Source: a virus (lineage: Duplodnaviria > Caudoviricetes). Taken from it: a stretch of 52,377 bases of DNA. Below the pieces are notes generated by a model. It ran no database searches and had not been told where the DNA came from. It saw only the letters and a program-made list of their open reading frames with translations. A program made the position numbers and the translations under genes. The DNA lies in IMG/VR virus record IMGVR_UViG_3300017785_001504, positions 1 through 52,377 of that record; one strand, given 5' to 3'. Positions 9,157-26,736 of the stretch are shown here, one piece after another. Each line of letters starts with the position of its first letter. Positions within the stretch are counted from its first letter, which is position 1.

Positions 9157-9409
9157 AAAGAAATTAGCTGCCGTCATTGGTATTCTTCCAGTAATGATGG
9201 ACTTCATGGAGGACATAAAGGATCAATATCCAAATATTTATGACAAGAGAATAAAGAAGTCGGGCAATGATTTTATAGAGGCTGTTGAAAAGTCAATCAG
9301 CCATTTGTACAAGAAGATGGACCATGAGCAGGAGAAGGATGTGCATGAATTTTACTACGAACTTGTCAACATGGGTAACTATTTCAGACAATGGCTAAAG
9401 GATTTATAA
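9131..9409 (+). CDS. Hypothetical protein
   Basis: 92-aa helical ORF in operon. Confidence 0.7.
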   Translation: MVSIMISNEKKLAAVIGILPVMMDFMEDIKDQYPNIYDKRIKKSGNDFIEAVEKSISHLYKKMDHEQEKDVHEFYYELVNMGNYFRQWLKDL

Positions 9410-9579
9410 AGTTCACAATTATATGGATCAGTCAGAATCTAGCCATTCCTTTTTGGACGATTGGTCATATTCACTTGATGACAACCATCTATGGTGACAT
9501 AACTGAGATACTCAGTTCTGTCGGTATGAACATAATAGTCGCACTGGGATTTTATTTAGATTATAAGAGGGGAGTTTAG
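9391..9579 (+). CDS. Small membrane protein
   Basis: 62 aa, two hydrophobic segments. Confidence 0.65.
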   Translation: MAKGFIKFTIIWISQNLAIPFWTIGHIHLMTTIYGDITEILSSVGMNIIVALGFYLDYKRGV

Positions 9580-9777
9580 TATTAACCTTTAACGTAAGGC
9601 AGATTTTAAACTAAGTCAGGCCTCCCCTCTTTTTGATATAGTACCTCGTAGCCTCTCTTAGATGCTCACTAGCGAGAGTGCGATGGACAGGGCAGCTGAC
9701 TGATTCCATCTAGCTGTGTAAGGCATGATAGTTTCGCGCTTTGCGCTTACACAAACCACCGAGCTAAAGTCGGGTGG
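9565..9777 (+). ncRNA. Candidate structured ncRNA: five consecutive stem-loops
   Basis: AAGAGGGGAG/CTCCCCTCTT, CTCTC/GAGAG, GATGGA/TCCATC, TGTGTAAG/CTTACACA, CCACC/GGTGG in a largely intergenic stretch. Confidence 0.5.
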
Positions 9778-9781
9778 ACAT

Positions 9782-9937
9782 AGTCCAGTGGCGGAATGGT
9801 AGACGCTATTATATTTTATGTCAGACACACCGAAACAAAGCGGACGGCGACACACAGGAGAGTTAACTCCCAAATAAACCATAAAATATAATTTGGAGAA
9901 CGAAAGTTTATTACAGGTTCGAATCCTGTCTGGACTA
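9782..9937 (+). ncRNA. tRNA-like RNA with no anticodon loop (156 nt)
   Basis: Acceptor AGTCCAG/CTGGACT+A; D arm TGGCGGAATGGTAGACGC; T arm ACAGG-TTCGAAT-CCTGT; anticodon arm is a 13-bp stem enclosing 59 nt. Confidence 0.8.
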
Positions 9938-9997
9938 CAAATTGATTCAAGATAAGGGGTAAAAATTGCCACATATCTAAACAAGAAATGTAAAAAA

Positions 9998-10246
9998 ATG
10001 AAATATCCGATAATTTTTTTAAGTGCCTTAATCATTGAAATCTGCTCTACATTTTATGTACACTATATTTCAGAAAGTAATGCTTTAGGAATGTGTTTCT
10101 TCGCTTTTGTTGGGCCATTTTTAGGACTACCTTTTGCAGGTTATATGGTTGAGTCAAAATTGTGGAGCGAACGAATTAAGATGGCTTTTGCTTTAGCGTT
10201 TGGATATGTATCGGGCGCTTTAATAGTAGTAAATGTAATTAACTAA
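9998..10246 (+). CDS. Small multi-TM membrane protein
   Basis: 82 aa, three hydrophobic segments. Confidence 0.7.
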   Translation: MKYPIIFLSALIIEICSTFYVHYISESNALGMCFFAFVGPFLGLPFAGYMVESKLWSERIKMAFALAFGYVSGALIVVNVIN

Positions 10247-10258
10247 ACAACAAGAACA

Positions 10259-10351
10259 ATGAATATATCAGAAATAATAATATTATCTCTGCCAATAGGA
10301 GGGCTAATTGGTTTAATTATTTACTATTTTTTTATTAATAAAAACCTTTAA
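10259..10351 (+). CDS. 30-aa single-TM peptide
   Basis: MNISEIIILSLPIGGLIGLIIYYFFINKNL*; bounded by junction repeats at both ends. Confidence 0.6.
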   Translation: MNISEIIILSLPIGGLIGLIIYYFFINKNL

Positions 10352-12485: not shown

Positions 12486-13584
12486 TATTGCCAGACAAAT
12501 CATCTCAGAGAACAATCTTGATACTAGAGAGGAGACAATGAGAATATATGTCACTCGTGCTATTAAAAGACACAATAAAGGCGTTGATGAGGCATGTGAT
12601 GATCTACAGGTAGCCCCATCAAACGTCCCATATCTTTGGCTTAAGACCAAGCAGGCGTCCCTATTTATCAAGAACCCGGCCTATCGCGTTGATGAGATTG
12701 ACTACGAAACAATTGTATCGAAGTTCTTGCAGGACAAGCCCGTGATTGTGAAGAAAGAATGGAAGCCAGGAAAGACGGTTGATCGTTTGGTTTGGACTGA
12801 CGTTCACGTAGGCATGGATGCTAGCCGTAAGGGATTGGCTTTGTATGCTGAGGATTGGAATGAGAAGATATTGATGCAGCGCGTTCATGAGATGGCTGCG
12901 TTTGTTATAGCCAATAAATCGTCAGATACGCTCATTTTAGACGATCTAGGAGACTTTATGGATGGTTGGGATGGTGAGACAACTCGAAAGGGGCATAAGC
13001 TGCCACAGAACATGACAAACGAAGAAGCATTTGAGTCGGGTCTAAAGGCAAAAGTCACACTAATTGACATATTGGCTCCGGAGTACACTCAGATAGTATG
13101 TAACAACATCTGCGAAGACAACCACTCAGGTGCCTTCGGTTACATTGTCAACTCAGCATTTAAGCATGTCATTGATCGTAAGCACAGCAACGTCACCGTG
13201 CACAACCACAAGAAGTTTATAAACCACTACATAATCGGAGACCATGGGTTTATCATTAGCCACGGCAAAGACTCTCGCAACCTTAAGTTCGGCTTCAAGG
13301 TCCAACTTGATCCAAGAAGTGTTGAGAAAATATCTCAGTACATTAGACACTCGCAAGAAATAAGGGCCTGTAAGTATGTTGAGTTTAGCAAGGGTGACTC
13401 TCACCAAATGCTATTTGACTACTGCTCTTCTGATGAGTTTGATTACTTTAACTTCCCGGCATTCTCGCCTAGCTCAGAGTGGGTTCAGACCAACTTTAAG
13501 AAAGGCCGATCAGGATTTGTGTTCTTCCAGATCGACCTCACATGCAATCGTAAGGTTGTTATGCCTTACTTCTTTAATATTTGA
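12427..13584 (+). CDS. Calcineurin-like metallophosphoesterase with N-terminal HTH
   Basis: TDVHVG, LGDFMDG, DNH, SHG, GDSH motifs. Confidence 0.85.
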   Translation: MKQYIDRILELLASGMTKADIARQIISENNLDTREETMRIYVTRAIKRHNKGVDEACDDLQVAPSNVPYLWLKTKQASLFIKNPAYRVDEIDYETIVSKFLQDKPVIVKKEWKPGKTVDRLVWTDVHVGMDASRKGLALYAEDWNEKILMQRVHEMAAFVIANKSSDTLILDDLGDFMDGWDGETTRKGHKLPQNMTNEEAFESGLKAKVTLIDILAPEYTQIVCNNICEDNHSGAFGYIVNSAFKHVIDRKHSNVTVHNHKKFINHYIIGDHGFIISHGKDSRNLKFGFKVQLDPRSVEKISQYIRHSQEIRACKYVEFSKGDSHQMLFDYCSSDEFDYFNFPAFSPSSEWVQTNFKKGRSGFVFFQIDLTCNRKVVMPYFFNI

Positions 13585-16500
13585 TCGGCTGTTTTATTGG
13601 CCTTAATTGCTAACAACATTTCTTCTGTTGGTCTTGGAATGTATTCTAAGATTTTAGCATACTCTATTTTTTGATCCTCCGTTAATGCAGTCTTATTGTT
13701 GCTCTCTAAGGTTGTTTTAATGAAATCGATTTCATCATCTATAGTTGACATCTTTTTCTTCTTCTCAGCTAACTTCTCTAGCACTGGATCAAGCTTCCCA
13801 TATTTCTCTTTAATGTCAGCTGACATGTTTTTTACTCTTTCAGAAGTTCTATTACTTTTCTTAAGTAGTGCAAATGACTTGTTGGCTATCTGATCAGCTT
13901 CACGAATTGGAGCCACTAAGCCTATTGATTTTATGATAGCAACACTTTTCATTTTTTCCATTCCTTCATCGTCAAGGTATGCCGTTCTTTCATTGTTGTC
14001 AATGAATTCACCTGTCTCCATAGCCTTGTAAATATCATAAGCCTCCGACAATTTTTCACCTTGAATTCCAAGGGTACCAAAATTCGTTTCATCAGATATG
14101 TAGAACTGAATGGAGTTTTCTTCAATATATTTCTCTCTTTTCTTTCTTTCTTCTTCAGCAGTAAGTGGGTCTTGGTCCTTGAGCTTTCTAATGTTATTTT
14201 CTTGATCAATATATTCATCAACTTCTGACTTTTCTGGTGCACCTATACCTGCATATGCCATTAGTTGATTAGATTTCTCAAGAATAAAATTATCTGCTAA
14301 TGATAGTGGTGAGAATACATCTAATATAGCCTTACTCCATGATCCAGATAGCATATTCTTTTTAAGTGTTTCAACAAGCTCTTCCTTCTCTTCATCATCA
14401 TATCCTAGTATACTCATTGCTGACCATAGTATCAATTCAGCCATTTTAAATCTAATGACATTATATACAGCAATCTCAGCTGAAATAGATGCCAAAGATC
14501 TCGCCGTATCCAAGTCAAAATTACCGGTAAACATTTTTGTCAGGTCTCCCCACATCCTTGTCTTTTGGTTCATACCAAAAGATGAGAATGGGAATAGCAT
14601 ACTTTTGATAAGCTTGGCATATGGATTTTTAGATCTGTATAAATCACCTCTAATTCTAGAATCAGTCATATCCATCGATCTATCAACCATTGACTGTGCG
14701 TAAGCTGCTGCATCTACATTTGGCTCGGCATTAAAGTCGATTGGACCTAACTTGTTTTTTGCTGCATACTTTCTATAGTAGGCCATCCAAGCTATTCGTC
14801 GTGCGGCAGCATCTGGATTAGATACCAATATTTGAAAGGCTTTGGCATTAAACTTAGTAAACTTATCTAAACCTATCTCTGCTATGTTTTTACCTAGTGT
14901 TGCCTTATCTATTGACTTATCAAAATTTGACAATGATATCAAGATGTCATTCTCACCAACGTTTGCAATTGACTGCCCTGATCTATTCATGAAGTCAAAA
15001 GCTGCTTTGCTATAGTCAGTTGGTCTTATGTATTCACCTGCATTTACAATGGTGTTTGACATACCTGATGCAAACTGGTTAGCCCACTGGCCAATACCAG
15101 ATAGTGCTCTTACGGATCCAAATGTACTAAGCACATCAAAGAACTTATCTGCACCTCTTAGTAGGTTTTTGTCGACAAGATTTTTTCCCTTTATGTCGTT
15201 AATGTAATCAGATAGTGCGCTCTTAATGATGTCAAAATCTTTCTCAGATCCAATAATTTCCTCATTCTCTCTTGAGTTGTAGAATGAGTTTAATTGTCTA
15301 ATAGCTTTAGCTGTATAAGAGTCAGTAAGCGCAAGTCTATATGATCTGAACATATTATTATCAAAGTTTAAGTCAACGTACTTGCCGTTTGATTTTAAGT
15401 CTTTTGGTCTTGTTATTGGCATCAATACACCGGCCTCATTTCTATTGAAGTAGTTGTTTGAATACTGTCCAAGACCAAGAAGATCGCCACCATTCAAAGC
15501 ATCACCATTTTCAGCTGCTCCTTGCTTAATATTAACGTATGTCTTTGGGGTATAGTTAATATCTTGGTTCAACATGATATTGTAAACACCCATTGCAGTG
15601 TCACTCAATTGATCGTACTTCTCAGCAAACATATCAACAGCGAAATTTACTGCATCTATATTTGATTTCTCAGCCTTATCAAGTACACTTTCAAGAGTAA
15701 CGTTAGCATTATATAGACCAAGTTTTTTGAATACTTTGTCATATAGCTTACCCATCTTTACTTTAGTATCATCCTGACTTTTTAAAAGCATATCCTTAGA
15801 ATCCATAAGTATATTGACCAATCGATCAAACTCTGCATCTTGGTCTATGTTTGGATTTGTTCTAATTAAGTCAGCGATAATACCTCTCTCGTATATGTTT
15901 TCGTTTGACTTAAATCCTTTTATGCCATGGAATTTTTTAATGTACTCTGATTGCTTGAATGCAGCCTCAAAGTCAGCTTTATTGGCACCAACAATAATTT
16001 TATTAATTCCACTTGCTTTTTGATATGCGTTAGCTTTCTCTACACTTCTAAACTTACGCTCAAGTATTCTACTAAATCCTGCAAATCCCCCTAATCTTAT
16101 TTGACCTAACTTTTTAAACATTGCTATGCTCATTGGGCTAGATTTGTCTCTAAACTTTTTAGCGTTCATCATTCCCTCATAGGCACCCATTAGAGACTCA
16201 ATTCCTGATGTAACACCATTGGCAAAGTATGTGTCAAGTGCATCTAGAACTTTAATTGAAGAAGCAATACCAAACTCCTCAGCGTCAATGTTGATTGCAT
16301 CAATAATAACCTGTGGTGTATCCTCGTCTATAAGTTGGCTGTATGCTGCCAACTGTAGGTCAATCTGATCAAGTATGTCAGCTGAATTATCTACGTCAGG
16401 CTTCAACGCTTGGAGCTCTGTTAGCATTGTTTCAGCAGGCAAGTTTGTAGAAGGTTTGCCGGTAATATTCTCGTATCTAGCCTGTAGGTTTTTAAATAGT

Positions 16501-19500
16501 CGCTGCGTTTGACGTTGTTGCTCAGCGTCAATGTATTCAGCAATTACCTGTAGATCAGGTTCTTGTTTTAGTGTCAACTTGCCGCCTCTAGTAGAGCTAG
16601 ACTTAACACCTTCCATAATCATCTGTGCTACAGCAATATGGTCTACAATATTCTCAACGTACTCAGCATCTAGTGATGTAAACATCTTGGCTACTACAGC
16701 GAATGGATTTGGCTTACCTTTTAGTTTACTGGCAATTGCCTTAGACATTCTCTTGGCCTTCTGAACGTTGTCTATGTACTCAGCATTTGCAAGCGCTCTA
16801 GATACATAATCAATGAACTCAGACACCTTTTGCTTATTATCGAAATTTAGGCCCTTCAGCTTCTTCATAATGAAGTCAAACTGCTTGACTGATATGTTGC
16901 CCTTACTTTTTAAAGAAGTGACGGTAGCGGAGATGTCAGCTAGTATTTTCTTATACTCTCTCTTTTGTTCTCTCTGCGCTCTAGCCTCAAGTTTGATCTG
17001 ATCAAGTAGAGCCTTGTACTCATCTTTCACAATCACCTGTGTCGGCTTCCCTCCTAAAATTTTTGGTGCCTTTTGTTGTTTTCTTGTAGGAGTTGATATT
17101 TCAATATCCGACTCAGATAATAGATTTTCTTGTACAGAAGATTTAAGTTCTTCTAATGAAGATATCTTATCAGTAATCTTGTTTATTAAAGATTTTCTAA
17201 ATTCAAGGTCACTATCTGAACTAGTAATTTTTCTTGATTGTTTTTCAAGATCTTTTTGTAGTAAGTCAAGCCTATTTTCTATCGACTTAAGAAGAGATTC
17301 TCTTAACTCTGTTATTTTTTTGGTCTTACCTCCAAGAAAATTAGGGACATTTCTATTCTTTATATCCTGTAGGTACTCAAAAGGGATTCCTAGTTTATTG
17401 AATACATCTGTAAAATCCTCTCCATAAATCTTTATTTTAGATTCTCTACTAGGAGTTGCTTTTTGGAATTTAATCTTTCCACCCTTAGCTGACTTAGTTT
17501 CAAACATAGGGTCAGATGGAGACACTTTCTTGACGTTTTTAGCTAATACTAATGCGCCTACTTGAATAACCTCATCAGCTGAAACCACTGGCATGCCATC
17601 TGATTTATCGTAAAACCAACTGTATCTAAATGGATTCATACCAACTTGCGTCCAAGCAGGGTCGTTCATTAATTCTTCCGCTCTAGCATGTACCAACTTA
17701 GGGTCTTCATTAACCCAATCACCAAACATTCTAGCAATGGTTGTTTTTTGAGAACCTGTAGCAATTCTCATTGCCGTACCTGGGAAAGTTTTAAAGTCTA
17801 CATTTTTTAGAACAGCAGTCTGACCATAAGCAATAGATTTTCCTTCCTTAACTCCATCATGTATTGAAACAACCCAAGTATCAAACCACTCGTATGCAGG
17901 AATATCTAACCTACATGCTACTCTTGCGCCATCTACTAGATTCTTGGTTAGCCCAATAATACCTGTTGCTACTTGATTATCTTTTAATGAATTAACTATT
18001 TCTTTAAGGCTTGGTAATCTAGGAACATTTTTAAATAACTTAATAGGTTGATTTTTAGCAACAGTGTCAAGGTATTCTTCTTGAGTTATTTCTTCATTAA
18101 AATAATCCTTTGCAGCTTGTTCAACTATTGGATTTCTCTTTTGCTTTTGATTTACTTTGTTTTTCTTTTTCCAAGCCTCTCTTTGTGCTTCAGTTTCACC
18201 AAGCGCTTCTAAAGCCGCTTCAGATCCAGGCATGGCATCTTTATCAGTTGTTAGCTGTTTCTTACGCCCGGTTGTTTTGGCTGTTTCTCGTTCTTTACGA
18301 ATTTCAGAAAATGGCTTATAGCCTTTGTCCCTCCAGGTTTCGATTCTTTCTTTAAGTCCTTTTGCATCTAGTTGTTTTTTAAAATATTCTTCATAACTAT
18401 CAGGTCTTTCGCCTGTTCTTAATATGTTTGCAGCCCATAAAGCAGCTTGAACTTCTCTAGGGGCTAATCCTAATTCAGATGCTACTACTCTTACAAACTC
18501 TTTTCCTTTCTCAAATTCAGCTTGATTCTTAGGATTGACTTGTTTTTTATTAGGATTCTTCCACATTATTATAGACCAAACATGTGAGTCTACAGCAATG
18601 GCTTCTTTATCTCCGGTAAGAGCCTTAAAGAAGTTAGACATCTTATCTGACTTTATTCCTTGGCCTTCTAAAAATTGAGTTACGTATCCATAATACTCAG
18701 CAACACCTTTAGGCATTTCGCCTTGGTAAATTCTTTCGGCATTACTGATTGCCAAGCTAACCGTTGTAACACTATTAGCCGCCATGGATGCCAATGGAAG
18801 TAAAGATAAAACATCTTCAGCGTACTCTCCAAATATACCATCTACATATGTGGATAAGCCATCATACCATGTGGTCCAATCTATAACCTCTCCAACTATT
18901 TCTTTGGCCTCTTGAATGGTAAGCGGCATGTTATCTCTTTGAAATAACTTTTGCAGCTTTTCAGATGCTTGATCTGTTCTTTGAACTAATTGTTTCTTAC
19001 GAGCGCTTATCTCCCCAGATGCATAAGAAAGCTTAGCCGTTCTACCATACTGAGCTAGGGCATACTTTTCACTTTTGTATCTACCTTGTTCTACTTTTTT
19101 GTAATACTCTTCATAACTAAATGTATCTCCAGATGACTTTGTAAGTTCTTTTATTGCCTCAGAAAGATTGTATGCTCCATCTAAGATAAATACCTCAATC
19201 TCTGCTGAACTACCATCTTGATTAACAGCTGCAATTTCATATGGATATGACTTATGGTAGAATGGGTCTTTCTTGTTACTTTTATTTGCAACCAAGCCCC
19301 CTTTTGTTCTATAAACAATGACAATGTCATGTACGTTTTTAGACTTTTGCGTCTCTGGTTCAGTAAATTTTTCAGCCATTGCTGACATAGACCCGGCAGA
19401 TGGAAATTTATCACTAACTACCTTTCTGTCGCCTAGAACACCCGATACGAATTCTTTTCTTTCTTCAAATGTTAAAGACTTAATTCTTTGACCATTGTCA

Positions 19501-22500
19501 TTAAGTATGTCATTTCCATTTCTGTCCTTAATAAACCCATCCTGTTGGAATAAAGTATACTCAAGCTCATCAAAAATTTGCTCAATATTGTTTGATCTCT
19601 TTAATGCGTTCTTGATTATATTCTTTTTACCTGCTATCTTCTTTTTATCAAAAGCCTTCTCAATATACATCATCAACTCAGCCTTAGTTACGCCAGAGTT
19701 TTTCTTTAATGCATCCATTTTCATTAACTCCAATGTAGCCAATAACATATCATTGTTACTCATTTGGCTTTTGGGCTTCATGATTATAGGAGTACCATAT
19801 ATATAACCATCGGCATCTCTTTTAGAATTTCTAGCAATTCCACTTGCCTTTGTCATCGTATTAGATGCCCACCACTTTCCTGTTATTATTGGATAGAATA
19901 TACCACCAAAGAAATTAAATAGTTTATTACCTTCATCGTCAGCTATAAATGCACCAGTCATCCTATCTGACTCAAATACATTAGATTTCTTGCCATCAAA
20001 TCTAGACAAAGGAACATTTTCTTCTAATTTGGTATTTGGGTTTACAGGGTATCTTTCAAATGTACCTGTAGCTAAAATACTTTTCTTTCTAGTTACATTA
20101 GTTGCATTAAGTACACCACTAATACCCATAGAATTAATATTCTCACCTGTAGTCAATCCAAAAGTAATGGCGTTAATAAGGTCAGCAGCTTCTTTAGTCT
20201 TAGCAGACGCCTTGAATATAATACCTAGGCCAATCTTTTTCATCAATCGGTTGATCAATGCTTTGAACTGAGTAAGCTTGCTTACAGTAAGCTCTTCTCT
20301 GTTGTCAGCAAGGATACCACCAAGTTGAGCCATAAACTCCTCAGCCTTGAGCTCGTCACCATCATATGACTCAATGAAAGCATCAAGATCGGCTAGTCTA
20401 GCTTTATCTGTAATTAATGGACGAAGTCCTTTTGCTAGGTCGATAAATAGATTTTCAGAAATACCTAACGCTGCAAAAGCATGGTGGACAGCCTCGTGAA
20501 GAAGTGTAACCATATCAGCCTTTGTCATGTCAATGTGAATCTCACCGTCTATATAAGACCCGGCACTATTTTCCTTGGTAATTGACTGCTTGCTCTCACC
20601 CGTTCTGTCGGCTAACGCGCTAGCATATTGGTCTGTATTCTCATGAAGATATATCTTAACACCTGGTAGTGCCTTCATAATGTTAAGAGCGGCCCTTACT
20701 ATAGGATTACGCTTGAACTTAACAGACATTAATTTTGCGTTCTTCTCGGTTATTAGATTGGCTTCAGCATCTACAGTTTCCTGAACCTCACCATCTATCA
20801 TTGAGAATTCTTCCGGAAGCAAACCAATCTTTTGATCGGCAAATTTTGCCTCATCATAGATCTGATTAACAAGAGCAGCAGCTTCATCAAGTTTGCCTTG
20901 CTCACGTAATTTTACAGCTTCCTGTCTTATAAGTTCAACTTCTTCGTTAACACCGGAGAAGTTTACATATGAATTCTGACCTCTAGTCTCAGTTGTCATA
21001 GCTCTACGCGCCAAAGGAGAGTACATTCTTGCATGCACATTCCATGCATTCTCTTCTCCCTTAGGTCCAAATGAGTTACCTAGTTCAGCATGACCAAAGA
21101 AGTCATGAACAGCTCTAAATAAATCATTAACCAACATAGGTTGGCCATTGACATCAGTAAATTCAGTTGTTGCGAGTAATGGATTTTCAGCTCGTTGTTT
21201 TGGTGTGATTGGTGTATCTCCAAAACCAGCTTCAGTAGAGAATATTCTAATGCGCTTATTGTTGCGCAAATCCTCGATCATTTCTTCAGAGTTAGCATAA
21301 GGCTCCTCATTGTTGATCTCTACTACATATCCGGCATCTAGGAACGCTTGGTATTGCTCAATAGTTTCTTTTGCCATGGCTTCATAAGCCCTTCTGACCT
21401 CTGGGTCATTAGGACTATCTTCCATAGCTTCATAAGCAGCGGCTATCCTTTTTGCTCTTTCGACATCGAATTCTGTCGTACCTTCAAACGTTGGTCTTTG
21501 AGATCCGAAAACTCTTTGAAAGTATCGATTAGCAATTTCTGCAACTGCCTTGAGCGGCTCGTTGAAGAGTCTATTTCCAGCTTTTGGTTTTCCTTTTTCA
21601 TCTTTTGCTAAATTAGTTTGTTTTTGCGTATCCTGCAAATTTTCTTTTATATACTGTCTTTCGATCTCCTGATAGACCGTCTCAAACTCAGCCTGCTCAA
21701 CAACACCAAGTTTGTTCTCACGATCACGGATAGCAAAGTCAAGGGCTTGTTCACCGGTAAGTTTAACCGTGTTACCAAGTCTATCACTTACTACAACAGC
21801 TTGAAGTGCGCCATTATCGTCGAACTCAAAGCCATCCTCGTTGATCTCCATGGTCGGGGTGTCTATCACAATCACCTCTCCGTTTGGCATAGCCGCCTCT
21901 ACGCGACCGTTGTTGTCTGATAGGGTTACTTGTTGTCCATTGACTTCGGCTTCGACGCCATTGAAGTATTTTTCGGCTCTGATTTTTTGGACCGCTTCAG
22001 AAGTTCTTCTAGTAGGGCTAGCTGCCCCTGCTTTGGTAGTTGCGACAGTTTCAGTCTTTGTTCTAAATTCATAGTTATCTAATTTATCTGCAATGTTTAA
22101 TAATTTCTCAGACATAGCTGCCTTTGTCTCAGGGCTGTATTGATCTGACTTGTCTAGTTGTTCTACCTCATTAAAGATAGCCTCAATAGCAGTGTCAATG
22201 TCATTATCGTTGATAAACTCAGCGTTTGACATCTTATCCATGATTGGGTTTATAGTGGCTCCAAGACGAGCCTCTGCACCCATATCTGCTATGTATTGGT
22301 CTACTTCTTCTTTAGCTTTTTGGGTAGTTTCTTTAAGTCCTGTTTCGGGTTCTCCTTTCGCCATTTCTCTGCCACCTGTGGCTCCTGGCTGTACAGATAC
22401 TTCACTTGTTGCTTGCTCTTGAAAGGCATTTTCTCCAATTTTAGTTAGTTCTTCATTGATAGCCTTGATGCGTGCTTCTATAGGTGCAACAAGGTTAGGG

Positions 22501-25268
22501 TCTTTCCCTCCTTTTTCTCTTGTTAATTGAGCTCTTTCTGTAATCAAAGAAAGAGATTTATTCATGTCTGATGTAGATAGACCATTTGGCATCATTTCAA
22601 ACGCAGACTCAATCTCGTTCAAGTTATCTAGATTCTGCTGTGCTTTTGCTTTAGTGATTTTACCATCCAACATCTGAGTCTTCATAGATGCCACGTATAG
22701 CTTCTTGAAGTTGCTATCTACAACAATATCTTTTAAGAACTTTACGTCATCTTCATTATACAAAGAAATATTACCCTTTGTTATAGCTTGAAATAATGTA
22801 CCTACTGATCCTAGGGTAACACCGCCAATCAGCTCAGCAACACCATCCTCAAATGTTTTAGATCCTAATTCTTTTAACCCATCGGCTGTGTCAAAGTACT
22901 CACCTTGAGTTAGATTTTTCTTTTGCTCTTCAGTTAAACCGCTTTGTTGTATGTAGTTATAAACATTCTTCAAGCCTTGGTCTAATACCAATGCTTGCGT
23001 AAATCCAGTCTCAAATTCAGCAACACCTGCCTGTGTTACACGAATTAATCCCTTAGCTAAAAGACTTTCAACCTCTTTGGCGGCAACTCTTTCAAGCGCT
23101 TCTTTAGTTGCATTAGCGCCTACTTTCTTAGCAGACTTAATAGCAACATCCATCATTACCTTACCCAAGAATGAGTCACCCTTAACTAAGTTCTGCAAAC
23201 CTACACTCTCAAGCACACCCATACCTGCTGCGTATGGTATCGCAATAATCGCGCGATCACCAGCAGACGTATATTGAAAGTCAGGATCGCTAAGCATTTC
23301 CTCTTCAATACCACTATAAGCCTGTGCAGCAAGTCCTATAAAACCAGCAGCCTTACCAGCTACACCAGTTGCCATTGCAGGTAGTGATTCAAGAACACCC
23401 CCTATGGCTTGTGTAATAAAACCTCTATCGCCTGACTTCATGTACTCAAGGGTAGTTCCCTCAGATCCAAGTACATCGATAATATTTTCTTTTGCTTGAT
23501 TCTTTGCTTTTAATACAGCTTGATTATCAAGTAGATTTTCAATCTGATCTTTAGTAAGATTCTTTCCGTTATATTTTATTGACTTGTAGTAAGCCTTTTC
23601 CTCTGGAGATAAATAATCGTATCTTTTTTCATTAGCCTCTAATCCAGCAAATGGCTCAACAAATGTCATTGATACACCGCTTAAGACCTTGTTAACTACA
23701 AATCCACCAAAACTACCTTCCTTTTCTTTAGCGGCAACATACTTACCAGCTACTAGATTTAACTTATTCTGTGATGCTTGAATTTCTTTTTTTTGCATCA
23801 CCAAATTTTGGGCTCTTGTTTCTAATGATTCAGCTTTATTATCTAGTATCTTTTTCTGAGCATCGAATTGTTCTTGAGTCATTTTGCCGCTTTGAGCTAA
23901 CTCATTAAATCTATTTACCTCATCATCGTATACTTTTCTATCTTGTAGTATGTTTTTTTGTGACTGTTCAAGATCATTAAGCTTCATATTATACGTCTTG
24001 ATATTATCTTGAATAATCTCATCAGTATAGTATGTGTTAATTTTAGCCTTCGCCTCCTTTATCTTGGCAGGATCTTTAGTAGCTAAAGCATACTTATAGT
24101 CATCATATATTTGATCTTGCTTTGCTTTGCTTTGTTGATCGCCACCTATTTTCTTTTTCTTATAGTCTTGATATGCTGAGCTTTTGTAGAATGACTGAAC
24201 ATCCTTTGAAGAAATATTTCCACCAACAATTTTTTTCTGAATGATTTCTTTCTGCTCTTCAAATGGCAATTTCTTAAACTGTGACTGAAAATCGCTAGAT
24301 AATAAGTTCTTACCTATGATAGCAGCAGACTCTTCTTCATAGCTACTTTGATCAGTTCCAAATGCCAATGTACTGCCTCCAGTTTGGGGCTTTATTTTTA
24401 TATCTCCTTTATTAAGACTATTTAAAGCTTTGTCAAAGTTTTCGCTATATGACTTAGTGGCATTTGTCTCTAAGAATGCACGTAAATCACGTGCTTGCTC
24501 AGGATTCTTTTCATCAAATTCAACTAACAGCTCCTTGCTGCCGTCCTTTGTCTTTACTCTGATTTGGTCAATAGCAAATAATCCCTCTTCAGAGAATTCA
24601 AAGCCATACTTGCCGTATTTTTCAGTCAAGTATTTGATAGCATTCTCCTCTGTTTTACCTACAAAGTCTGAGTTAATGTCATCAAATTTAGCAGGCTTCA
24701 TAGTAGTTGTGGTTACAACTCTAGTGCTAACGCTTTTACCGTATCGATTATTTAACGCATTGATTGAGCCCTCATTTTGAATGGTATGCCACTTGCTACC
24801 AGGAGTCATTCGCTGCCATTGTCCGTCCTTTATACGGTATTGGTTATCAGCTTTCTCGTCATCGTAATTATTAAATAACTCATATTCTTGAGATAAAGAC
24901 GCATCCTTTTTAAACTGCTTATTAAGATTACCAATTCTATTTGGGTCAGTAATTTGAGCGTACTGAGCTTCCTTCTGGCCATATACTTTTACGCCAGATT
25001 CTTCATACCACTTGCCATTCTTAAACTTATAAGGCTTCTCTTCTTTACCGGGATATCCAGTAAAGATCTCAACGTTTGATGACGCCGATGAACCAGTCCC
25101 CGAAGCTGATCCCCCACCTGTTGGGTCTTTTTTTTTTAAATCAACTTGCGGAGCATACTCAGGATATTTTTCTACCATTTTAGATGCTAGAGTGTAATTA
25201 TCTACATCCTTATACTCTGGATACTTAGCTTTTATTTTTTCAGCAAATTCGTTATAGTCTAAAGGCAT
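13566..25268 (-). CDS. Giant (~3900 aa) modular virion/ejection protein
   Basis: Start placed at MPLDYNEF after an A-rich leader; last of three ejection-type genes; HEAVH zincin motif at 20484-20498; several discrete modules; long helical C-terminus. Confidence 0.85.
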   Translation of the reverse strand: MPLDYNEFAEKIKAKYPEYKDVDNYTLASKMVEKYPEYAPQVDLKKKDPTGGGSASGTGSSASSNVEIFTGYPGKEEKPYKFKNGKWYEESGVKVYGQKEAQYAQITDPNRIGNLNKQFKKDASLSQEYELFNNYDDEKADNQYRIKDGQWQRMTPGSKWHTIQNEGSINALNNRYGKSVSTRVVTTTTMKPAKFDDINSDFVGKTEENAIKYLTEKYGKYGFEFSEEGLFAIDQIRVKTKDGSKELLVEFDEKNPEQARDLRAFLETNATKSYSENFDKALNSLNKGDIKIKPQTGGSTLAFGTDQSSYEEESAAIIGKNLLSSDFQSQFKKLPFEEQKEIIQKKIVGGNISSKDVQSFYKSSAYQDYKKKKIGGDQQSKAKQDQIYDDYKYALATKDPAKIKEAKAKINTYYTDEIIQDNIKTYNMKLNDLEQSQKNILQDRKVYDDEVNRFNELAQSGKMTQEQFDAQKKILDNKAESLETRAQNLVMQKKEIQASQNKLNLVAGKYVAAKEKEGSFGGFVVNKVLSGVSMTFVEPFAGLEANEKRYDYLSPEEKAYYKSIKYNGKNLTKDQIENLLDNQAVLKAKNQAKENIIDVLGSEGTTLEYMKSGDRGFITQAIGGVLESLPAMATGVAGKAAGFIGLAAQAYSGIEEEMLSDPDFQYTSAGDRAIIAIPYAAGMGVLESVGLQNLVKGDSFLGKVMMDVAIKSAKKVGANATKEALERVAAKEVESLLAKGLIRVTQAGVAEFETGFTQALVLDQGLKNVYNYIQQSGLTEEQKKNLTQGEYFDTADGLKELGSKTFEDGVAELIGGVTLGSVGTLFQAITKGNISLYNEDDVKFLKDIVVDSNFKKLYVASMKTQMLDGKITKAKAQQNLDNLNEIESAFEMMPNGLSTSDMNKSLSLITERAQLTREKGGKDPNLVAPIEARIKAINEELTKIGENAFQEQATSEVSVQPGATGGREMAKGEPETGLKETTQKAKEEVDQYIADMGAEARLGATINPIMDKMSNAEFINDNDIDTAIEAIFNEVEQLDKSDQYSPETKAAMSEKLLNIADKLDNYEFRTKTETVATTKAGAASPTRRTSEAVQKIRAEKYFNGVEAEVNGQQVTLSDNNGRVEAAMPNGEVIVIDTPTMEINEDGFEFDDNGALQAVVVSDRLGNTVKLTGEQALDFAIRDRENKLGVVEQAEFETVYQEIERQYIKENLQDTQKQTNLAKDEKGKPKAGNRLFNEPLKAVAEIANRYFQRVFGSQRPTFEGTTEFDVERAKRIAAAYEAMEDSPNDPEVRRAYEAMAKETIEQYQAFLDAGYVVEINNEEPYANSEEMIEDLRNNKRIRIFSTEAGFGDTPITPKQRAENPLLATTEFTDVNGQPMLVNDLFRAVHDFFGHAELGNSFGPKGEENAWNVHARMYSPLARRAMTTETRGQNSYVNFSGVNEEVELIRQEAVKLREQGKLDEAAALVNQIYDEAKFADQKIGLLPEEFSMIDGEVQETVDAEANLITEKNAKLMSVKFKRNPIVRAALNIMKALPGVKIYLHENTDQYASALADRTGESKQSITKENSAGSYIDGEIHIDMTKADMVTLLHEAVHHAFAALGISENLFIDLAKGLRPLITDKARLADLDAFIESYDGDELKAEEFMAQLGGILADNREELTVSKLTQFKALINRLMKKIGLGIIFKASAKTKEAADLINAITFGLTTGENINSMGISGVLNATNVTRKKSILATGTFERYPVNPNTKLEENVPLSRFDGKKSNVFESDRMTGAFIADDEGNKLFNFFGGIFYPIITGKWWASNTMTKASGIARNSKRDADGYIYGTPIIMKPKSQMSNNDMLLATLELMKMDALKKNSGVTKAELMMYIEKAFDKKKIAGKKNIIKNALKRSNNIEQIFDELEYTLFQQDGFIKDRNGNDILNDNGQRIKSLTFEERKEFVSGVLGDRKVVSDKFPSAGSMSAMAEKFTEPETQKSKNVHDIVIVYRTKGGLVANKSNKKDPFYHKSYPYEIAAVNQDGSSAEIEVFILDGAYNLSEAIKELTKSSGDTFSYEEYYKKVEQGRYKSEKYALAQYGRTAKLSYASGEISARKKQLVQRTDQASEKLQKLFQRDNMPLTIQEAKEIVGEVIDWTTWYDGLSTYVDGIFGEYAEDVLSLLPLASMAANSVTTVSLAISNAERIYQGEMPKGVAEYYGYVTQFLEGQGIKSDKMSNFFKALTGDKEAIAVDSHVWSIIMWKNPNKKQVNPKNQAEFEKGKEFVRVVASELGLAPREVQAALWAANILRTGERPDSYEEYFKKQLDAKGLKERIETWRDKGYKPFSEIRKERETAKTTGRKKQLTTDKDAMPGSEAALEALGETEAQREAWKKKNKVNQKQKRNPIVEQAAKDYFNEEITQEEYLDTVAKNQPIKLFKNVPRLPSLKEIVNSLKDNQVATGIIGLTKNLVDGARVACRLDIPAYEWFDTWVVSIHDGVKEGKSIAYGQTAVLKNVDFKTFPGTAMRIATGSQKTTIARMFGDWVNEDPKLVHARAEELMNDPAWTQVGMNPFRYSWFYDKSDGMPVVSADEVIQVGALVLAKNVKKVSPSDPMFETKSAKGGKIKFQKATPSRESKIKIYGEDFTDVFNKLGIPFEYLQDIKNRNVPNFLGGKTKKITELRESLLKSIENRLDLLQKDLEKQSRKITSSDSDLEFRKSLINKITDKISSLEELKSSVQENLLSESDIEISTPTRKQQKAPKILGGKPTQVIVKDEYKALLDQIKLEARAQREQKREYKKILADISATVTSLKSKGNISVKQFDFIMKKLKGLNFDNKQKVSEFIDYVSRALANAEYIDNVQKAKRMSKAIASKLKGKPNPFAVVAKMFTSLDAEYVENIVDHIAVAQMIMEGVKSSSTRGGKLTLKQEPDLQVIAEYIDAEQQRQTQRLFKNLQARYENITGKPSTNLPAETMLTELQALKPDVDNSADILDQIDLQLAAYSQLIDEDTPQVIIDAINIDAEEFGIASSIKVLDALDTYFANGVTSGIESLMGAYEGMMNAKKFRDKSSPMSIAMFKKLGQIRLGGFAGFSRILERKFRSVEKANAYQKASGINKIIVGANKADFEAAFKQSEYIKKFHGIKGFKSNENIYERGIIADLIRTNPNIDQDAEFDRLVNILMDSKDMLLKSQDDTKVKMGKLYDKVFKKLGLYNANVTLESVLDKAEKSNIDAVNFAVDMFAEKYDQLSDTAMGVYNIMLNQDINYTPKTYVNIKQGAAENGDALNGGDLLGLGQYSNNYFNRNEAGVLMPITRPKDLKSNGKYVDLNFDNNMFRSYRLALTDSYTAKAIRQLNSFYNSRENEEIIGSEKDFDIIKSALSDYINDIKGKNLVDKNLLRGADKFFDVLSTFGSVRALSGIGQWANQFASGMSNTIVNAGEYIRPTDYSKAAFDFMNRSGQSIANVGENDILISLSNFDKSIDKATLGKNIAEIGLDKFTKFNAKAFQILVSNPDAAARRIAWMAYYRKYAAKNKLGPIDFNAEPNVDAAAYAQSMVDRSMDMTDSRIRGDLYRSKNPYAKLIKSMLFPFSSFGMNQKTRMWGDLTKMFTGNFDLDTARSLASISAEIAVYNVIRFKMAELILWSAMSILGYDDEEKEELVETLKKNMLSGSWSKAILDVFSPLSLADNFILEKSNQLMAYAGIGAPEKSEVDEYIDQENNIRKLKDQDPLTAEEERKKREKYIEENSIQFYISDETNFGTLGIQGEKLSEAYDIYKAMETGEFIDNNERTAYLDDEGMEKMKSVAIIKSIGLVAPIREADQIANKSFALLKKSNRTSERVKNMSADIKEKYGKLDPVLEKLAEKKKKMSTIDDEIDFIKTTLESNNKTALTEDQKIEYAKILEYIPRPTEEMLLAIKANKTADQILKK
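21608..21639 (-). promoter_or_regulatory. Internal promoter-like element in the giant gene
   Basis: TTTG-N20-TAATTTAG, 6 nt before an out-of-frame ATG at 21601. Confidence 0.45.
22301..22429 (-). CDS. Nested out-of-frame small basic protein (MPFKSK-type), 42 aa
   Basis: MPFKSKQQVKYLYSQEPQVAEKWRKENPKQDLKKLPKKLKKK*; A-rich leader. Confidence 0.65.
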   Translation of the reverse strand: MPFKSKQQVKYLYSQEPQVAEKWRKENPKQDLKKLPKKLKKK

Positions 25269-25284
25269 GTTTATTTTTTTATTA

Positions 25285-26736
25285 TTATAGACCCAATCCA
25301 AGAGGATCATTATTCTTAGGAGTTGCAGGTTTAGGTTTTTTAGTGGTAGTGCTTGCAGTTCTACCGCCTGCTCTAGCTTGATTAAGTGCGGCATCCCAAT
25401 CTCCTTGTTGAAGATTTGTAACCCCTAGATATGGCGTTAATGAATTAACTGTGGCATTTGGAATAGTTTCTACAAGTTCTTTTGTAAATCCAGTACCTCT
25501 TGCCTTTTTAACAGTCTTGTAAACCTGTAGCTTGCCACCTTCAATCCATTTAAAGTCATATGTAGTAGACATCTCGCTTAATTTTTCGCTACTAGTGAAG
25601 TTTTTTACAACTTTGTCAGCTAAAGGAATAAGTTTATTTTCAGGCTCTTTGTCGCCCTTTAATGGTCTTACGTCTTCTTCAATTGACTTGAATTCAATCT
25701 GTAGCTCAATAGCATTCTTGATAGCTTCTTTGGCGCGATCTCTTTGATATGCAGTAATCATTGGTTGATATACACCAGATGCATCTTTTTGCATTGGTAT
25801 GAGTTTTTTCTCAGCCTCTTTAATAAACTCATTTAACTCTCCCTGATCCATGTCAGCCATGTTCTTGAAAGCACGTATTTCATTTTGTTTATCAACCATC
25901 TCCATTAATAGTTGATCCTTATCTTGAGCTGTGTAATAAGTATTAAAGCCTTCGTCCATGTTATCCATCAAAATGGATAGTGTTGATCTATTATTGCTAG
26001 TCAAAGCACCTGTTAAGTCTGCTATTTTTTCAGCATAACCAGGTGCCTGTCTAAGGTCAGTTACTACAGTTATTCCGTTTTCTGTAGTGTATTTTTGCCA
26101 ATACTTAGTAACCTCAGCGACAGACTCATCTACTTTTACTTTGTCAAATATCATGTTATTGATATCTGCAATAGTCTTAGAGCTCTCAATAGTATCTGGA
26201 ATTACTTGCCCGGTTTTTGCATCTAATCGGCCTGTACTGACTCCACCAGTGCTTGGGTCTATAAAAACTTGTAAGTTCTTTAAGTCACCCATTCTAGCAA
26301 AATATTCACCTGCTTGAACAGATGCTTTTGATATTTCACCACTTTGGAGTTTTTTTTGAATCTCTGCGTTCTTTGTATCAAAGCCCTTTACACTAGTGGC
26401 TAGTGTACCCCAATTTTCCATGAGGTTGTTCATTCTTTGCTTATACTCTTTTGGGTCAAGCTCACCTCTCTTAAGTGCGTCATTCCAAGCCTTAATAGTA
26501 GCAACACCATTCTGAGATGCACCAAGCATTTGCTGTTGGAATGTCTGACTAGTAAAATTATCAGCCTCTTGAATGGTCCTAATATTGTCAGTCTTGAGTT
26601 GATCAAGCTCTAACTTAAGGTCTTCACGGGTAGTTTCAATATCTCTTACAGTGGTATAAAGACCGCCTATAGCCTTAGACCAATCTACCGACTCGGTAGG
26701 GATATAGCCAAATATGTTTTGATTGCTAGCTGCCAT
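25285..26736 (-). CDS. Putative internal virion/ejection protein
   Basis: Helical 483-aa protein between the small pilot-like gene and the giant gene. Confidence 0.65.
   Translation of the reverse strand: MAASNQNIFGYIPTESVDWSKAIGGLYTTVRDIETTREDLKLELDQLKTDNIRTIQEADNFTSQTFQQQMLGASQNGVATIKAWNDALKRGELDPKEYKQRMNNLMENWGTLATSVKGFDTKNAEIQKKLQSGEISKASVQAGEYFARMGDLKNLQVFIDPSTGGVSTGRLDAKTGQVIPDTIESSKTIADINNMIFDKVKVDESVAEVTKYWQKYTTENGITVVTDLRQAPGYAEKIADLTGALTSNNRSTLSILMDNMDEGFNTYYTAQDKDQLLMEMVDKQNEIRAFKNMADMDQGELNEFIKEAEKKLIPMQKDASGVYQPMITAYQRDRAKEAIKNAIELQIEFKSIEEDVRPLKGDKEPENKLIPLADKVVKNFTSSEKLSEMSTTYDFKWIEGGKLQVYKTVKKARGTGFTKELVETIPNATVNSLTPYLGVTNLQQGDWDAALNQARAGGRTASTTTKKPKPATPKNNDPLGLGL

Follow-up and report, generated by a model that had tools for sequence, protein, structure and literature searches.

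Stable tRNA-like RNAs have been annotated in phages since T5, and they have stood without an assigned function. The closest annotated relatives of the element described here are RNA1 (30501-30644) and RNA2 (32959-33083) of phage T5 (NC_005859), both annotated as "tRNA-like stable RNA with unknown functions." In the engineered tRNA scaffold of Ponchon and Dardel, the anticodon arm is reportedly swapped for an arbitrary structured RNA, and tRNA enzymes are said to process and stabilize the product. In plant mitochondria, tRNA-like folds known as t-elements are RNase P and RNase Z cut sites at the ends of neighboring RNAs, and the tRNA-like module of YrlA RNA is topologically permuted. Lak megaphages carry tRNA genes with "enigmatic introns" that match no intron class, and one such insert may itself encode a tRNA, according to Devoto et al. 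(2019, PMC6784885). In this work, we analyzed a 52,377-nt stretch of DNA from a virus of the Caudoviricetes (IMG/VR record IMGVR_UViG_3300017785_001504, positions 1 to 52,377; hereafter, the window) and found that its positions 9782-9937 (+) are a real, well-formed tRNA-shaped gene. Comparisons of this element with its relatives show that the design of T5 RNA1 is no oddity but that of a very large, phage-restricted family, in which one constant leucine-tRNA frame surrounds hundreds of unrelated, structured, and exchangeable interiors. We consider it probable, if by no means secure, that the element is a non-decoding accessory RNA framed as a tRNA, matured by the tRNA enzymes of the host and displaying a swappable structured cargo.

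The tRNA frame of the element, which we refer to as the shell, is complete. The T at 9781 (+) lies directly 5′ of the acceptor stem, whose 5′ strand, AGTCCAG (9782-9788), forms 7/7 pairs with CTGGACT; the latter is followed by A73 (9937) and the trailer CAA (9938-9940), the whole 3′ end spanning 9930-9940 (acceptor 3′ strand, 9930-9936). Positions 9789-9807 hold U8, G9, a Leu-type D arm (GCGG-AAUGGUAGA-CGC) that matches the consensus of the family described below, and U26. The D arm proper (GCGGAATGGTAGACGC, 9791-9806) is of the Leu type, and the stretch 9789-9806 (UG-GCGGAAUGGUAGACGC), in which U8, A14, A15, G18, and G19 are all present, contains the commonest D arm of the family. A T arm, ACAGG-UUCGAAU-CCUGU, occupies 9913-9929 in both the Rfam tRNA alignment and the predicted fold. 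A segment resembling a variable arm (9893-9912) ends in U48 (9912) and contains the predicted hairpin GAAC-GAAA-GUUU (9898-9909) where a class II tRNA would have its variable arm. The original prediction, which was made from the sequence of the window, had named an intact acceptor stem, Leu-type D arm, T arm, and small variable hairpin, and all four were located.

The D arm and the T arm are separated by 106 nt, and the interior (9808-9912, 105 nt) contains no 7-nt anticodon loop. Where a canonical tRNA has a 5-bp anticodon stem and a 7-nt loop with U33 and a readable anticodon, the element has a 13-bp helix that closes a 59-nt domain. This helix (9808-9820 with 9880-9892) is predicted by RNAfold, its 5′ strand in both the minimum free energy and the centroid structures, and both of its strands are unchanged in L118, a contig with a nearly identical cargo. 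The enclosed 59-nt core (9821-9879) is predicted to form a three-way junction with two hairpins, CCG/CGG (9830-9832 with 9841-9843) and GGAG/CTCC (9857-9860 with 9867-9870), and it matched no Rfam family at E ≤ 10. The perfect helix around 59 nt with two small hairpins, as well as the missing 7-nt loop and the missing encoded CCA, had all been anticipated and are borne out by the fold predictions, by reading of the sequence, and by ARAGORN. The GACACAC repeat that had also been pointed out fared less well: two copies are present (9824-9830 and 9849-9855), but the second is GACAGAC in L118, so the repeat is not conserved.

In the Infernal search that had been proposed as a check, the Rfam tRNA model (RF00005) matched the element with 38.1 bits (gathering score, 29; E = 1.6e−4 for the whole window), and the alignment places 71 inserted nucleotides in the anticodon loop. 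No other Rfam family attains its gathering score in the window; a genome-wide profile search with this model did not report the element at E ≤ 0.001. ARAGORN, another proposed check, called no gene at the element, in agreement with the missing 7-nt anticodon loop. The fold of the whole element has a z-score of −2.44 (200 shuffles), and that of the cargo alone, −3.17 (200 dinucleotide shuffles).

To collect relatives, we scanned IMG/VR with three exact patterns that combined D-loop and T-loop motifs at differing spacings; they gave 102, at least 120, and at least 119 stretches, respectively. The first batch contained 120 D-loop/T-loop pairings, 105 of them with at least 6/7 acceptor pairs, and the other 15 were dropped as probable neighboring tRNAs. 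The same definition of an element, a D-loop/T-loop signature plus at least 6/7 acceptor pairs, was applied to all fetched DNA, including 80 loci fetched through the helicase of the window. At least 257 distinct elements, 70 to 166 nt long and most of them between 90 and 150 nt, fit this definition on contigs of uncultured phages, and their interiors fall into 195 unrelated clusters. The acceptor AGTCAGG occurs in 146 of the 257 elements, and the D-arm 16-mer is identical in 58 of 75 family sequences, although 10 of its 16 bases (the first 10, family positions 10-19) were imposed, like the other D-loop and T-loop letters, by the search pattern. Among the same 75 sequences there are 34 different acceptor stems, of which the rare stem of the window is one. 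Four helicase-anchored relatives (L013, L014, L027, and L012) illustrate the pattern, with the same tRNA halves at the 5′ and 3′ ends and wholly different interiors.

ARAGORN calls were obtained for 54 of the 257 elements. Approximately two dozen of these calls, and hence only that many of the 257, are ordinary tRNA-Leu genes of 78 to 85 nt with other, G-initial acceptors. The identities called often were Phe, Ile, Pro, or Ser, or were left undetermined; on AGTCAGG shells the called identities are scattered and the anticodons misplaced. AGTCAGG shells with interiors of just 20 to 30 nt lack an anticodon arm altogether. When the 24-nt 5′ half of the shell was searched against 185,579 prokaryotic species genomes (one genome each), matches were confined to 8 contigs of metagenome-assembled genomes with inconsistent taxonomy, and all 8 are shells of at least 104 nt with a non-tRNA interior; there was no ordinary tRNA-Leu among them. 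From this distribution, the shell family appears to be phage-only. It is also essentially undescribed: full-text literature searches, whose scope did not extend to the subscription literature on T5, yielded no description of the shell family and no characterization of T5 RNA1. One unannotated member resides in GenBank at positions 523-630 of MW202828.1 (L183; acceptor AGTGCAG/CTGCACT; 53.4 bits with our shell model, R1), a complete 60.8-kb podovirus genome from a spring. It was reached through blastn of the element alone, which gave T-arm-sized matches with 16 to 20% coverage. A further T-arm-like fragment follows this member at approximately 665-700. Against the concern raised at the outset, that the homologues might prove to be ordinary tRNAs and the insert unique, the homologues are not ordinary tRNAs, and the insert is not confined to the genome of the window.

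Selection acts on the shell at the RNA level, and the shell is specifically leucine-like. Across an alignment of 64 members, 99.4% of the cells that make up the three shell helices form pairs, a figure inflated for the acceptor stem by the preselection for at least 6/7 acceptor pairs. Both-sided changes were found in 11 of 15 shell pairs (0 of 500 shuffles as high), including 4 of the 5 pairs of the T stem. We also counted base frequencies at positions outside the search pattern in the 196 elements of at least 95 nt. U48, immediately 5′ of the T stem, occurs in 191 of the 196 and A73 in 167, with another discriminator base in 29. A T precedes the acceptor in 153 elements, and C opens the trailer in at least 174, the trailer reading CAA in 80; CCA is encoded in only 4. 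The element of the window holds every majority state (U48, A73, U(−1), C74, and no CCA), and it scores 93.1 bits with R1, although it is itself in the seed of that model. Bacterial RNase P prefers U(−1). The identity set of leucyl-tRNA synthetase (LeuRS) in Escherichia coli and Aquifex comprises A73, U8-A14, A15-U48, G18-U55, and G19-C56, and the anticodon arm is reported as dispensable for leucine aminoacylation (PMC2377443). By this comparison, the shell keeps the published LeuRS identity set along with U at −1 and C at +74. We offer as a structural argument that these phage RNAs may keep exactly what LeuRS needs and replace what LeuRS can do without.

A second line of evidence comes from the cargos, which travel independently of the acceptor stems. 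The cargo of the window differs from that of L118 by 1 change in 106 nt (at 9853), whereas the acceptor and discriminator differ at 5 of 15 positions with pairing preserved. L118 lies within a tRNA array on an otherwise unrelated contig and is the sole homologue of the window cargo found in IMG/VR; no other cargo module is common to the window and the 426 fetched loci. Conversely, the rare acceptor stem of the window surrounds an unrelated cargo in L427, the only other IMG/VR contig with that stem. A second homologue of the cargo, X5, is a 299-nt contig from a freshwater RNA library; it aligns with 9780-9938 at 5 differences, and beyond this stretch both of its flanks diverge. Beyond the window, in 34 pairs of elements with cargo divergence of at most 5%, the cargos differ by 2.2% on average and the acceptor positions by 10%, and 23 of 38 multi-member cargo clusters are associated with two or more acceptor stems. 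These patterns indicate that shells and cargos reassort between unrelated phages, and the middle is most likely exchanged when recombination takes place inside the invariant sequences of the D arm and the T arm. Searches of metagenomes for the window cargo gave 0 matches in a first scan and one GC-rich chance match (L185) in a second, and blastn of 9400-10300 against GenBank phages gave no match.

The cargos also show evidence of structure. In the sister subfamily A1, represented by three diverged copies, six interior pairs are kept through double substitutions; covariation support for a second sister cargo is weaker. Across the family, cargos fold better than flanking sequences of equal length (mean z-score, −0.92 versus −0.30; n = 103 each; Mann-Whitney, P = 2.4e−5). 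One cargo type, marked by TAGTAGACGAAAA ... GAGGGATAAGCTCCAT, is common to L012 (9338-9503), L003 (8895-9048), and L007 (10088-10218). L012 and L003 have an extra insertion of approximately 30 nt in the D loop that L007 is without, which makes the D loop a second slot for insertions. The cargo of L142 (6972-7124) resembles, by eye, a complete second cloverleaf nested within the shell (GCCGAGT...GATGGTTCGATCCCATT CTCGGG), on which ARAGORN is silent. A hammerhead-like sequence in the L027 cargo, CUGACGAG, sits within a plain hairpin loop and gave no Rfam match.

Taken together, one shell with 195 interiors, the reassortment of the two, the covarying helices of A1, and cargos more stable than their flanks are best accommodated by a suggestion already present in the original prediction, namely, a tRNA scaffold presenting an RNA cargo. 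A number of observations weigh against it. The processing, CCA addition, charging, and accumulation of the window RNA are predictions, the RNA evidence consisting of assembled contigs from metatranscriptome libraries (4 runs), in which DNA carry-over is possible and ends and levels are not readable. The excess of stable cargo folds is modest, with z-scores below −2 in 15% of cargos and 11% of flank controls. The homologues of the window cargo are near-identical, which leaves its own helices without covariation support. There is no common cargo motif, as no k-mer across 65 cargo clusters stands out beyond a z-score of ~4; no antisense target in the window, where the longest cargo match of 11 nt equals that of shuffles; and no conserved neighbor protein, the top cluster (terminase-like) being present in 13 of 185 loci. 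To these should be added the inflation of acceptor pairing noted above and the invariance of the D-loop and T-loop, which the search patterns imposed.

Under our preferred explanation of a tRNA-framed accessory RNA, the shell would recruit the tRNA maturation enzymes of the host. Cleavage by RNase P would fall at the U(−1)/A1 junction and would also form the 3′ end of an RNA encoded immediately upstream (the U element, described below); the 3′ end of the shell would be trimmed at A73/C74, with CCA then added. What results would be a stable ~159-nt RNA displaying its cargo. Because the full LeuRS identity set is kept, the shell may also be leucylated. Given the diversity of the cargos, the exchange of cassettes, and the presence/absence polymorphism among near-identical phages, we propose that the cargo could help the phage take over its host or act in phage-host conflict, and that translation is not its role; the huge cargo diversity, the cassette exchange, and the polymorphic site resemble, by analogy, accessory phage loci related to conflict. 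In the RNA libraries, where uncovered stretches carry no meaning, the X5 contig runs through 9780-9938 contiguously and unspliced between flanks different from those of the window, and we take it as a hint of expression. A 163-nt contig of run X2 (depth, 15) carries the 3′ end of one shell and, ~70 nt later, the 5′ end of another. Tandem shells of another phage occur in a metatranscriptome at higher word depth than the window's own sequence.

A bolder version of this proposal, which we regard as rather doubtful, would see in the host-matured, CCA-tailed, and possibly leucylated tRNA-Leu frame with interchangeable aptamer-like cargos a natural programmable RNA display system. Each cargo would bind and disarm a different host factor or defense protein, and cargos would be traded by recombination in the invariant D and T arms, making the system an RNA counterpart of the gene islands that encode protein anti-defense factors.

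The most serious rival starts from the sequence directly upstream. The U element (9640-9781, +), a structured and conserved RNA ~140 nt in length, abuts the 5′ end of the shell with no spacer. It is conserved, with covarying pairs, in L010, L012, L013, L014, and L018; has an invariant core (GATGGACAGGGCAGCTGACTGATTCCATCTAGCTGTGTAAGG ... CTTACAC ... CCACC-GAGCTAAAGTC-GGGTGG), a variable-loop hairpin, and a terminal hairpin, the end being terminator-like in some relatives; and matched no Rfam family. A pseudoknot could arise from the pairings GATGGA/TCCATC and CAGCT/AGCTG. The U element passes directly into a shell in the window and L013, and in L012, L014, and L018, where no shell lies downstream, it ends in a hairpin and a T-run. 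RNA-library contigs cover 9607-9757 (X2) and 9555-9783 (X3) of this region, and X3, a contig of a relative, has a different tRNA-like start at the same point after the U element. This layout fits the formation of the U RNA 3′ end by RNase P, were such cleavage to occur.

The shell could, then, be punctuation only: a cis-acting processing signal for RNase P and RNase Z that frees the U RNA and the downstream mRNA, with the interior as filler. The spacer-free junction, the alternative tRNA-like start in X3, and the hairpin and T-run of shell-less U elements all favor such a role, and the absence of a motif common to the interiors and the existence of interiors down to 20 nt are what filler would look like. 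Filler, however, would be expected to shrink, yet the 90- to 150-nt class prevails. Neither the covarying helices of the A1 cargo, nor the better folding of cargos relative to flanks, nor the retention of identical cargos across unrelated phages is expected of it. For cleavage, an acceptor stem and a T arm would suffice, and the full LeuRS set with A73 and U48 would be superfluous. Moreover, a canonical tRNA lies within 1 kb of only 55 of the 196 large elements. We therefore judge a purely punctuating role unlikely.

Alternatively, the shell rather than the cargo may be the active part. It would act as a leucine-accepting, non-decoding tRNA mimic that titrates or exploits LeuRS or another reader of the tRNA-Leu body, or as bait for a defense that attacks tRNA bodies, while the cargo would tune stability or localization. 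The original prediction had likewise named a decoy for tRNA-targeting defenses or synthetases, and the shell does keep the LeuRS identity set. Since the element has no anticodon loop, it cannot bait an anticodon nuclease. The complete identity set points in this direction, as A73 and U48 are frequent in positions that the search pattern left free; so do the dominance of the single acceptor AGTCAGG and the dispensability of the anticodon arm for leucylation (PMC2377443). Set against these are the 34 acceptor stems tolerated among 75 sequences, the 29 elements with a discriminator other than A, and the fact that charging is a prediction from sequence. A mimic also leaves the diversity, structure, and exchange of the cargos unexplained, and we find it decidedly unlikely as a full account.

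We attach a small probability to a third alternative, that the element is an interrupted tRNA-Leu in which part of 9808-9892 is an intron. The element is the most tRNA-like member of the family in this respect: the 13-bp helix could supply an anticodon stem with its first 5 bp, the variable-arm hairpin coming after it, and a cut after U34 that joins 9815 to 9884 would leave the loop AUUAAAU with the anticodon UAA, a Leu(UAA) loop obtained by reading the sequence and not as tool output. The cut point is not forced, as others give AAA, UUA, or UUU. Unexplained tRNA inserts do have a precedent in the Lak megaphages (PMC6784885). The insert would be about 60 to 70 nt. No group I or group II intron or ribozyme matched in 9500-10200 at E ≤ 10; the four other Rfam matches in that interval (rox2, PyrG leader, SNORA69, and abiF; E = 0.85 to 9.4) are far below gathering scores and unrelated. 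Known group I introns are far larger than an insert of 60 to 70 nt. Bulges are absent from the 13-bp helix, which is perfect, and there is no bulge-helix-bulge motif. No RNA ligase, splicing endonuclease, or CCA-adding enzyme was found among the 41 window open reading frames (ORFs) compared with Pfam, PHROGs, or both databases (at least 7 ORFs of at least 100 amino acids [aa] lie outside this set). Among members that share the shell, neither an anticodon stem nor an anticodon loop is conserved, and certain interiors measure a mere 20 nt; the 426 fetched loci (3.9 Mb) yielded no insert-free allele. No splice joints appeared in the contigs of the four RNA-library runs, and X5 is unspliced, although this argument is weak for contigs to which carried-over DNA may have contributed. 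The unknown type of intron that the original prediction had entertained is not supported by these results.

Finally, a decaying tRNA pseudogene or a selfish DNA cassette without RNA function is very improbable: the window cargo has two near-identical homologues only, which leaves long-term conservation unsupported, and the closest relatives are without the element, but its rare acceptor is still 7/7 paired and its 13-bp helix perfect, the shell stems covary strongly family-wide, U48, A73, U(−1), and C74 are conserved, and T5 RNA1, which shares the design, carries a stable-RNA annotation.

Some narrower identities were considered and rejected. A transfer-messenger RNA (tmRNA) is contradicted by the absence of an ARAGORN call and of an Rfam match, by the complete D arm of Leu rather than Ala type, and by the lack of a common frame among the cargos of relatives; a tmRNA-like tag could be read from a UAA in the loop of the second hairpin of the window, yet the L013 cargo, as read from its sequence, is stop-free in every frame. 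For YrlA and the bacterial Y RNAs (RF02553), there was no match at the gathering score in the window and none at E ≤ 10 in 9500-10200. The 13-bp inverted repeat is not that of a miniature inverted-repeat transposable element, as its removal leaves no anticodon stem and the repeat travels with the shell arms as part of the cargo. A minus-strand ORF overlapping the element (9658-10035) is considered spurious, having no PHROG match and being missing in relatives without the element.

The U element and the shell lie together in a variable intergenic hot spot (9566-9948, +), between the conserved end of an ORF (9391-9579) and a conserved motif at 9949-10003, and the element has the same orientation as its neighbors. 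In four close relatives (L005, L006, L070, and L001), the hot spot holds ~60 to 100 nt of unrelated sequence, and in L003 and L007, it holds other tRNA-like shells. With R1, a shell was detected at E < 1e−5 within ~6 kb of the helicase in 12 of the 80 helicase-anchored loci. The downstream-edge motif, AAGATAAG(G/T)GGTAAAAATTGCCACATA, is conserved in L001, L003, L005, L006, L007, L017, and L070 and contains a small hairpin, GTGG..CCAC; its core has one exact copy in the window, and the 4 matches at 2 mismatches are not above chance. A scan for promoters and terminators around the element gave sites no more numerous than in shuffles.

Other RNA-like modules populate the corresponding regions of relatives. 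In L010 (8806-8850), L012 (9504-9550), and L013 (8917-8960), a conserved module, ACTAGCGGTGCTGTTATTGGTTGAGTAAACCGATTGAACCG, closes the RNA island; it is followed by a GC hairpin and, in L010, by eight T in the manner of a terminator, while L012 has no T run. A second odd tRNA-like gene is present in L013 (8832-8915), L014 (2762-2847), and L045 (1543-1615), where ARAGORN reports a "tRNA-???" with the two-base anticodon "tt." Its D arm is different (GTGTAAT..GGTAACA), and its anticodon region has AATTTAATA and a small covarying hairpin. A conserved hairpin, CTCGGAAAGACGAG, precedes this gene in L013, L014, and L007.

The virus record of the window is 86% complete according to CheckV, and the sequencing runs that match parts of the element region are labeled freshwater or riverine. 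Its plus strand encodes a primase-helicase, a helicase, exonucleases, and thymidylate synthase, and its minus strand a 3942-aa ORF, portal, terminase, virion proteins, and a crAss muzzle domain protein; this gene content makes the phage a crAss-like podovirus. The 3942-aa ORF (13566-25394, −) has just two weak Pfam domains, DUF7178 and Phage_L5_gp82, and its counterpart in a GenBank relative is labeled "reticulocyte binding/rhoptry protein," which is probably a misnomer. No homing endonuclease was found among the small ORFs adjoining the element. ARAGORN found no ordinary tRNA or tmRNA gene in the 52-kb window, and supplying translation is therefore an unlikely role for the element. Across the family, the listed clusters of neighboring proteins are almost wholly on the strand of the element; because of this shared orientation, the elements look embedded in operons. 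A 25-nt gene junction (TTAACTAAACAACAAGAACAATG and the next bases) is identical in the window (10238-10262) and in L427 (2886-2910), contigs that are otherwise unrelated, and may be a common stop-to-start leader of these phages.

The window offers a clean two-by-two case, with the same cargo on another acceptor (L118), the same acceptor on another cargo (L427), and a defined hot spot, and the recombination model is therefore directly testable. The family also matters for annotation. Finders of tRNA genes miss shell genes, as ARAGORN does here, or give them meaningless anticodons, which distorts counts of phage tRNAs and suppressors.

Comparison with known systems places the family closest to T5. 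Like the element of the window, T5 RNA1 and RNA2 have a 7-bp acceptor stem, a T arm, and an interior of the 80-nt class that replaces the anticodon arm; the D arm of RNA1, as read from its sequence, is of the Leu type, whereas that of RNA2 is not. Over the full length of R1, the two score 25.4 and 21.7 bits, respectively, compared with 45 to 93 bits for family members, while the ordinary tRNAs of T5 give partial matches or none, with no tRNA-Leu among the matches at E ≤ 0.01. The T5 RNAs differ from the family in that their acceptor and D-arm sequences depart from the consensus and their cargos are unrelated; their setting is a coliphage genome with a densely packed tRNA array, and their stability is as stated in the record annotation. 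The oversized tRNA genes of Lak megaphages resemble the shell family in size and, with the cloverleaf-like cargo of L142 (by eye), perhaps in content, but they have an assigned anticodon, an excision point, and insert-free alleles, whereas the shell family has no conserved anticodon arm and no empty allele was found for it. The likeness to t-elements lies in the abutment of the window shell on the U element; t-elements, however, are minimal and cargo-free, and the shell family keeps a full identity set and a structured, exchanged cargo. Like the shell, tmRNA and YrlA are non-decoding and keep an acceptor/T-arm module while other RNA replaces the anticodon arm. The engineered tRNA scaffold is man-made and uses other tRNA bodies, while the phage shell is natural, Leu-specific, widespread, and known here from its sequences. 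Should the frame really mature as a tRNA does, phages would have arrived at the engineers' tRNA scaffold and run it as a modular system of RNA accessory genes.

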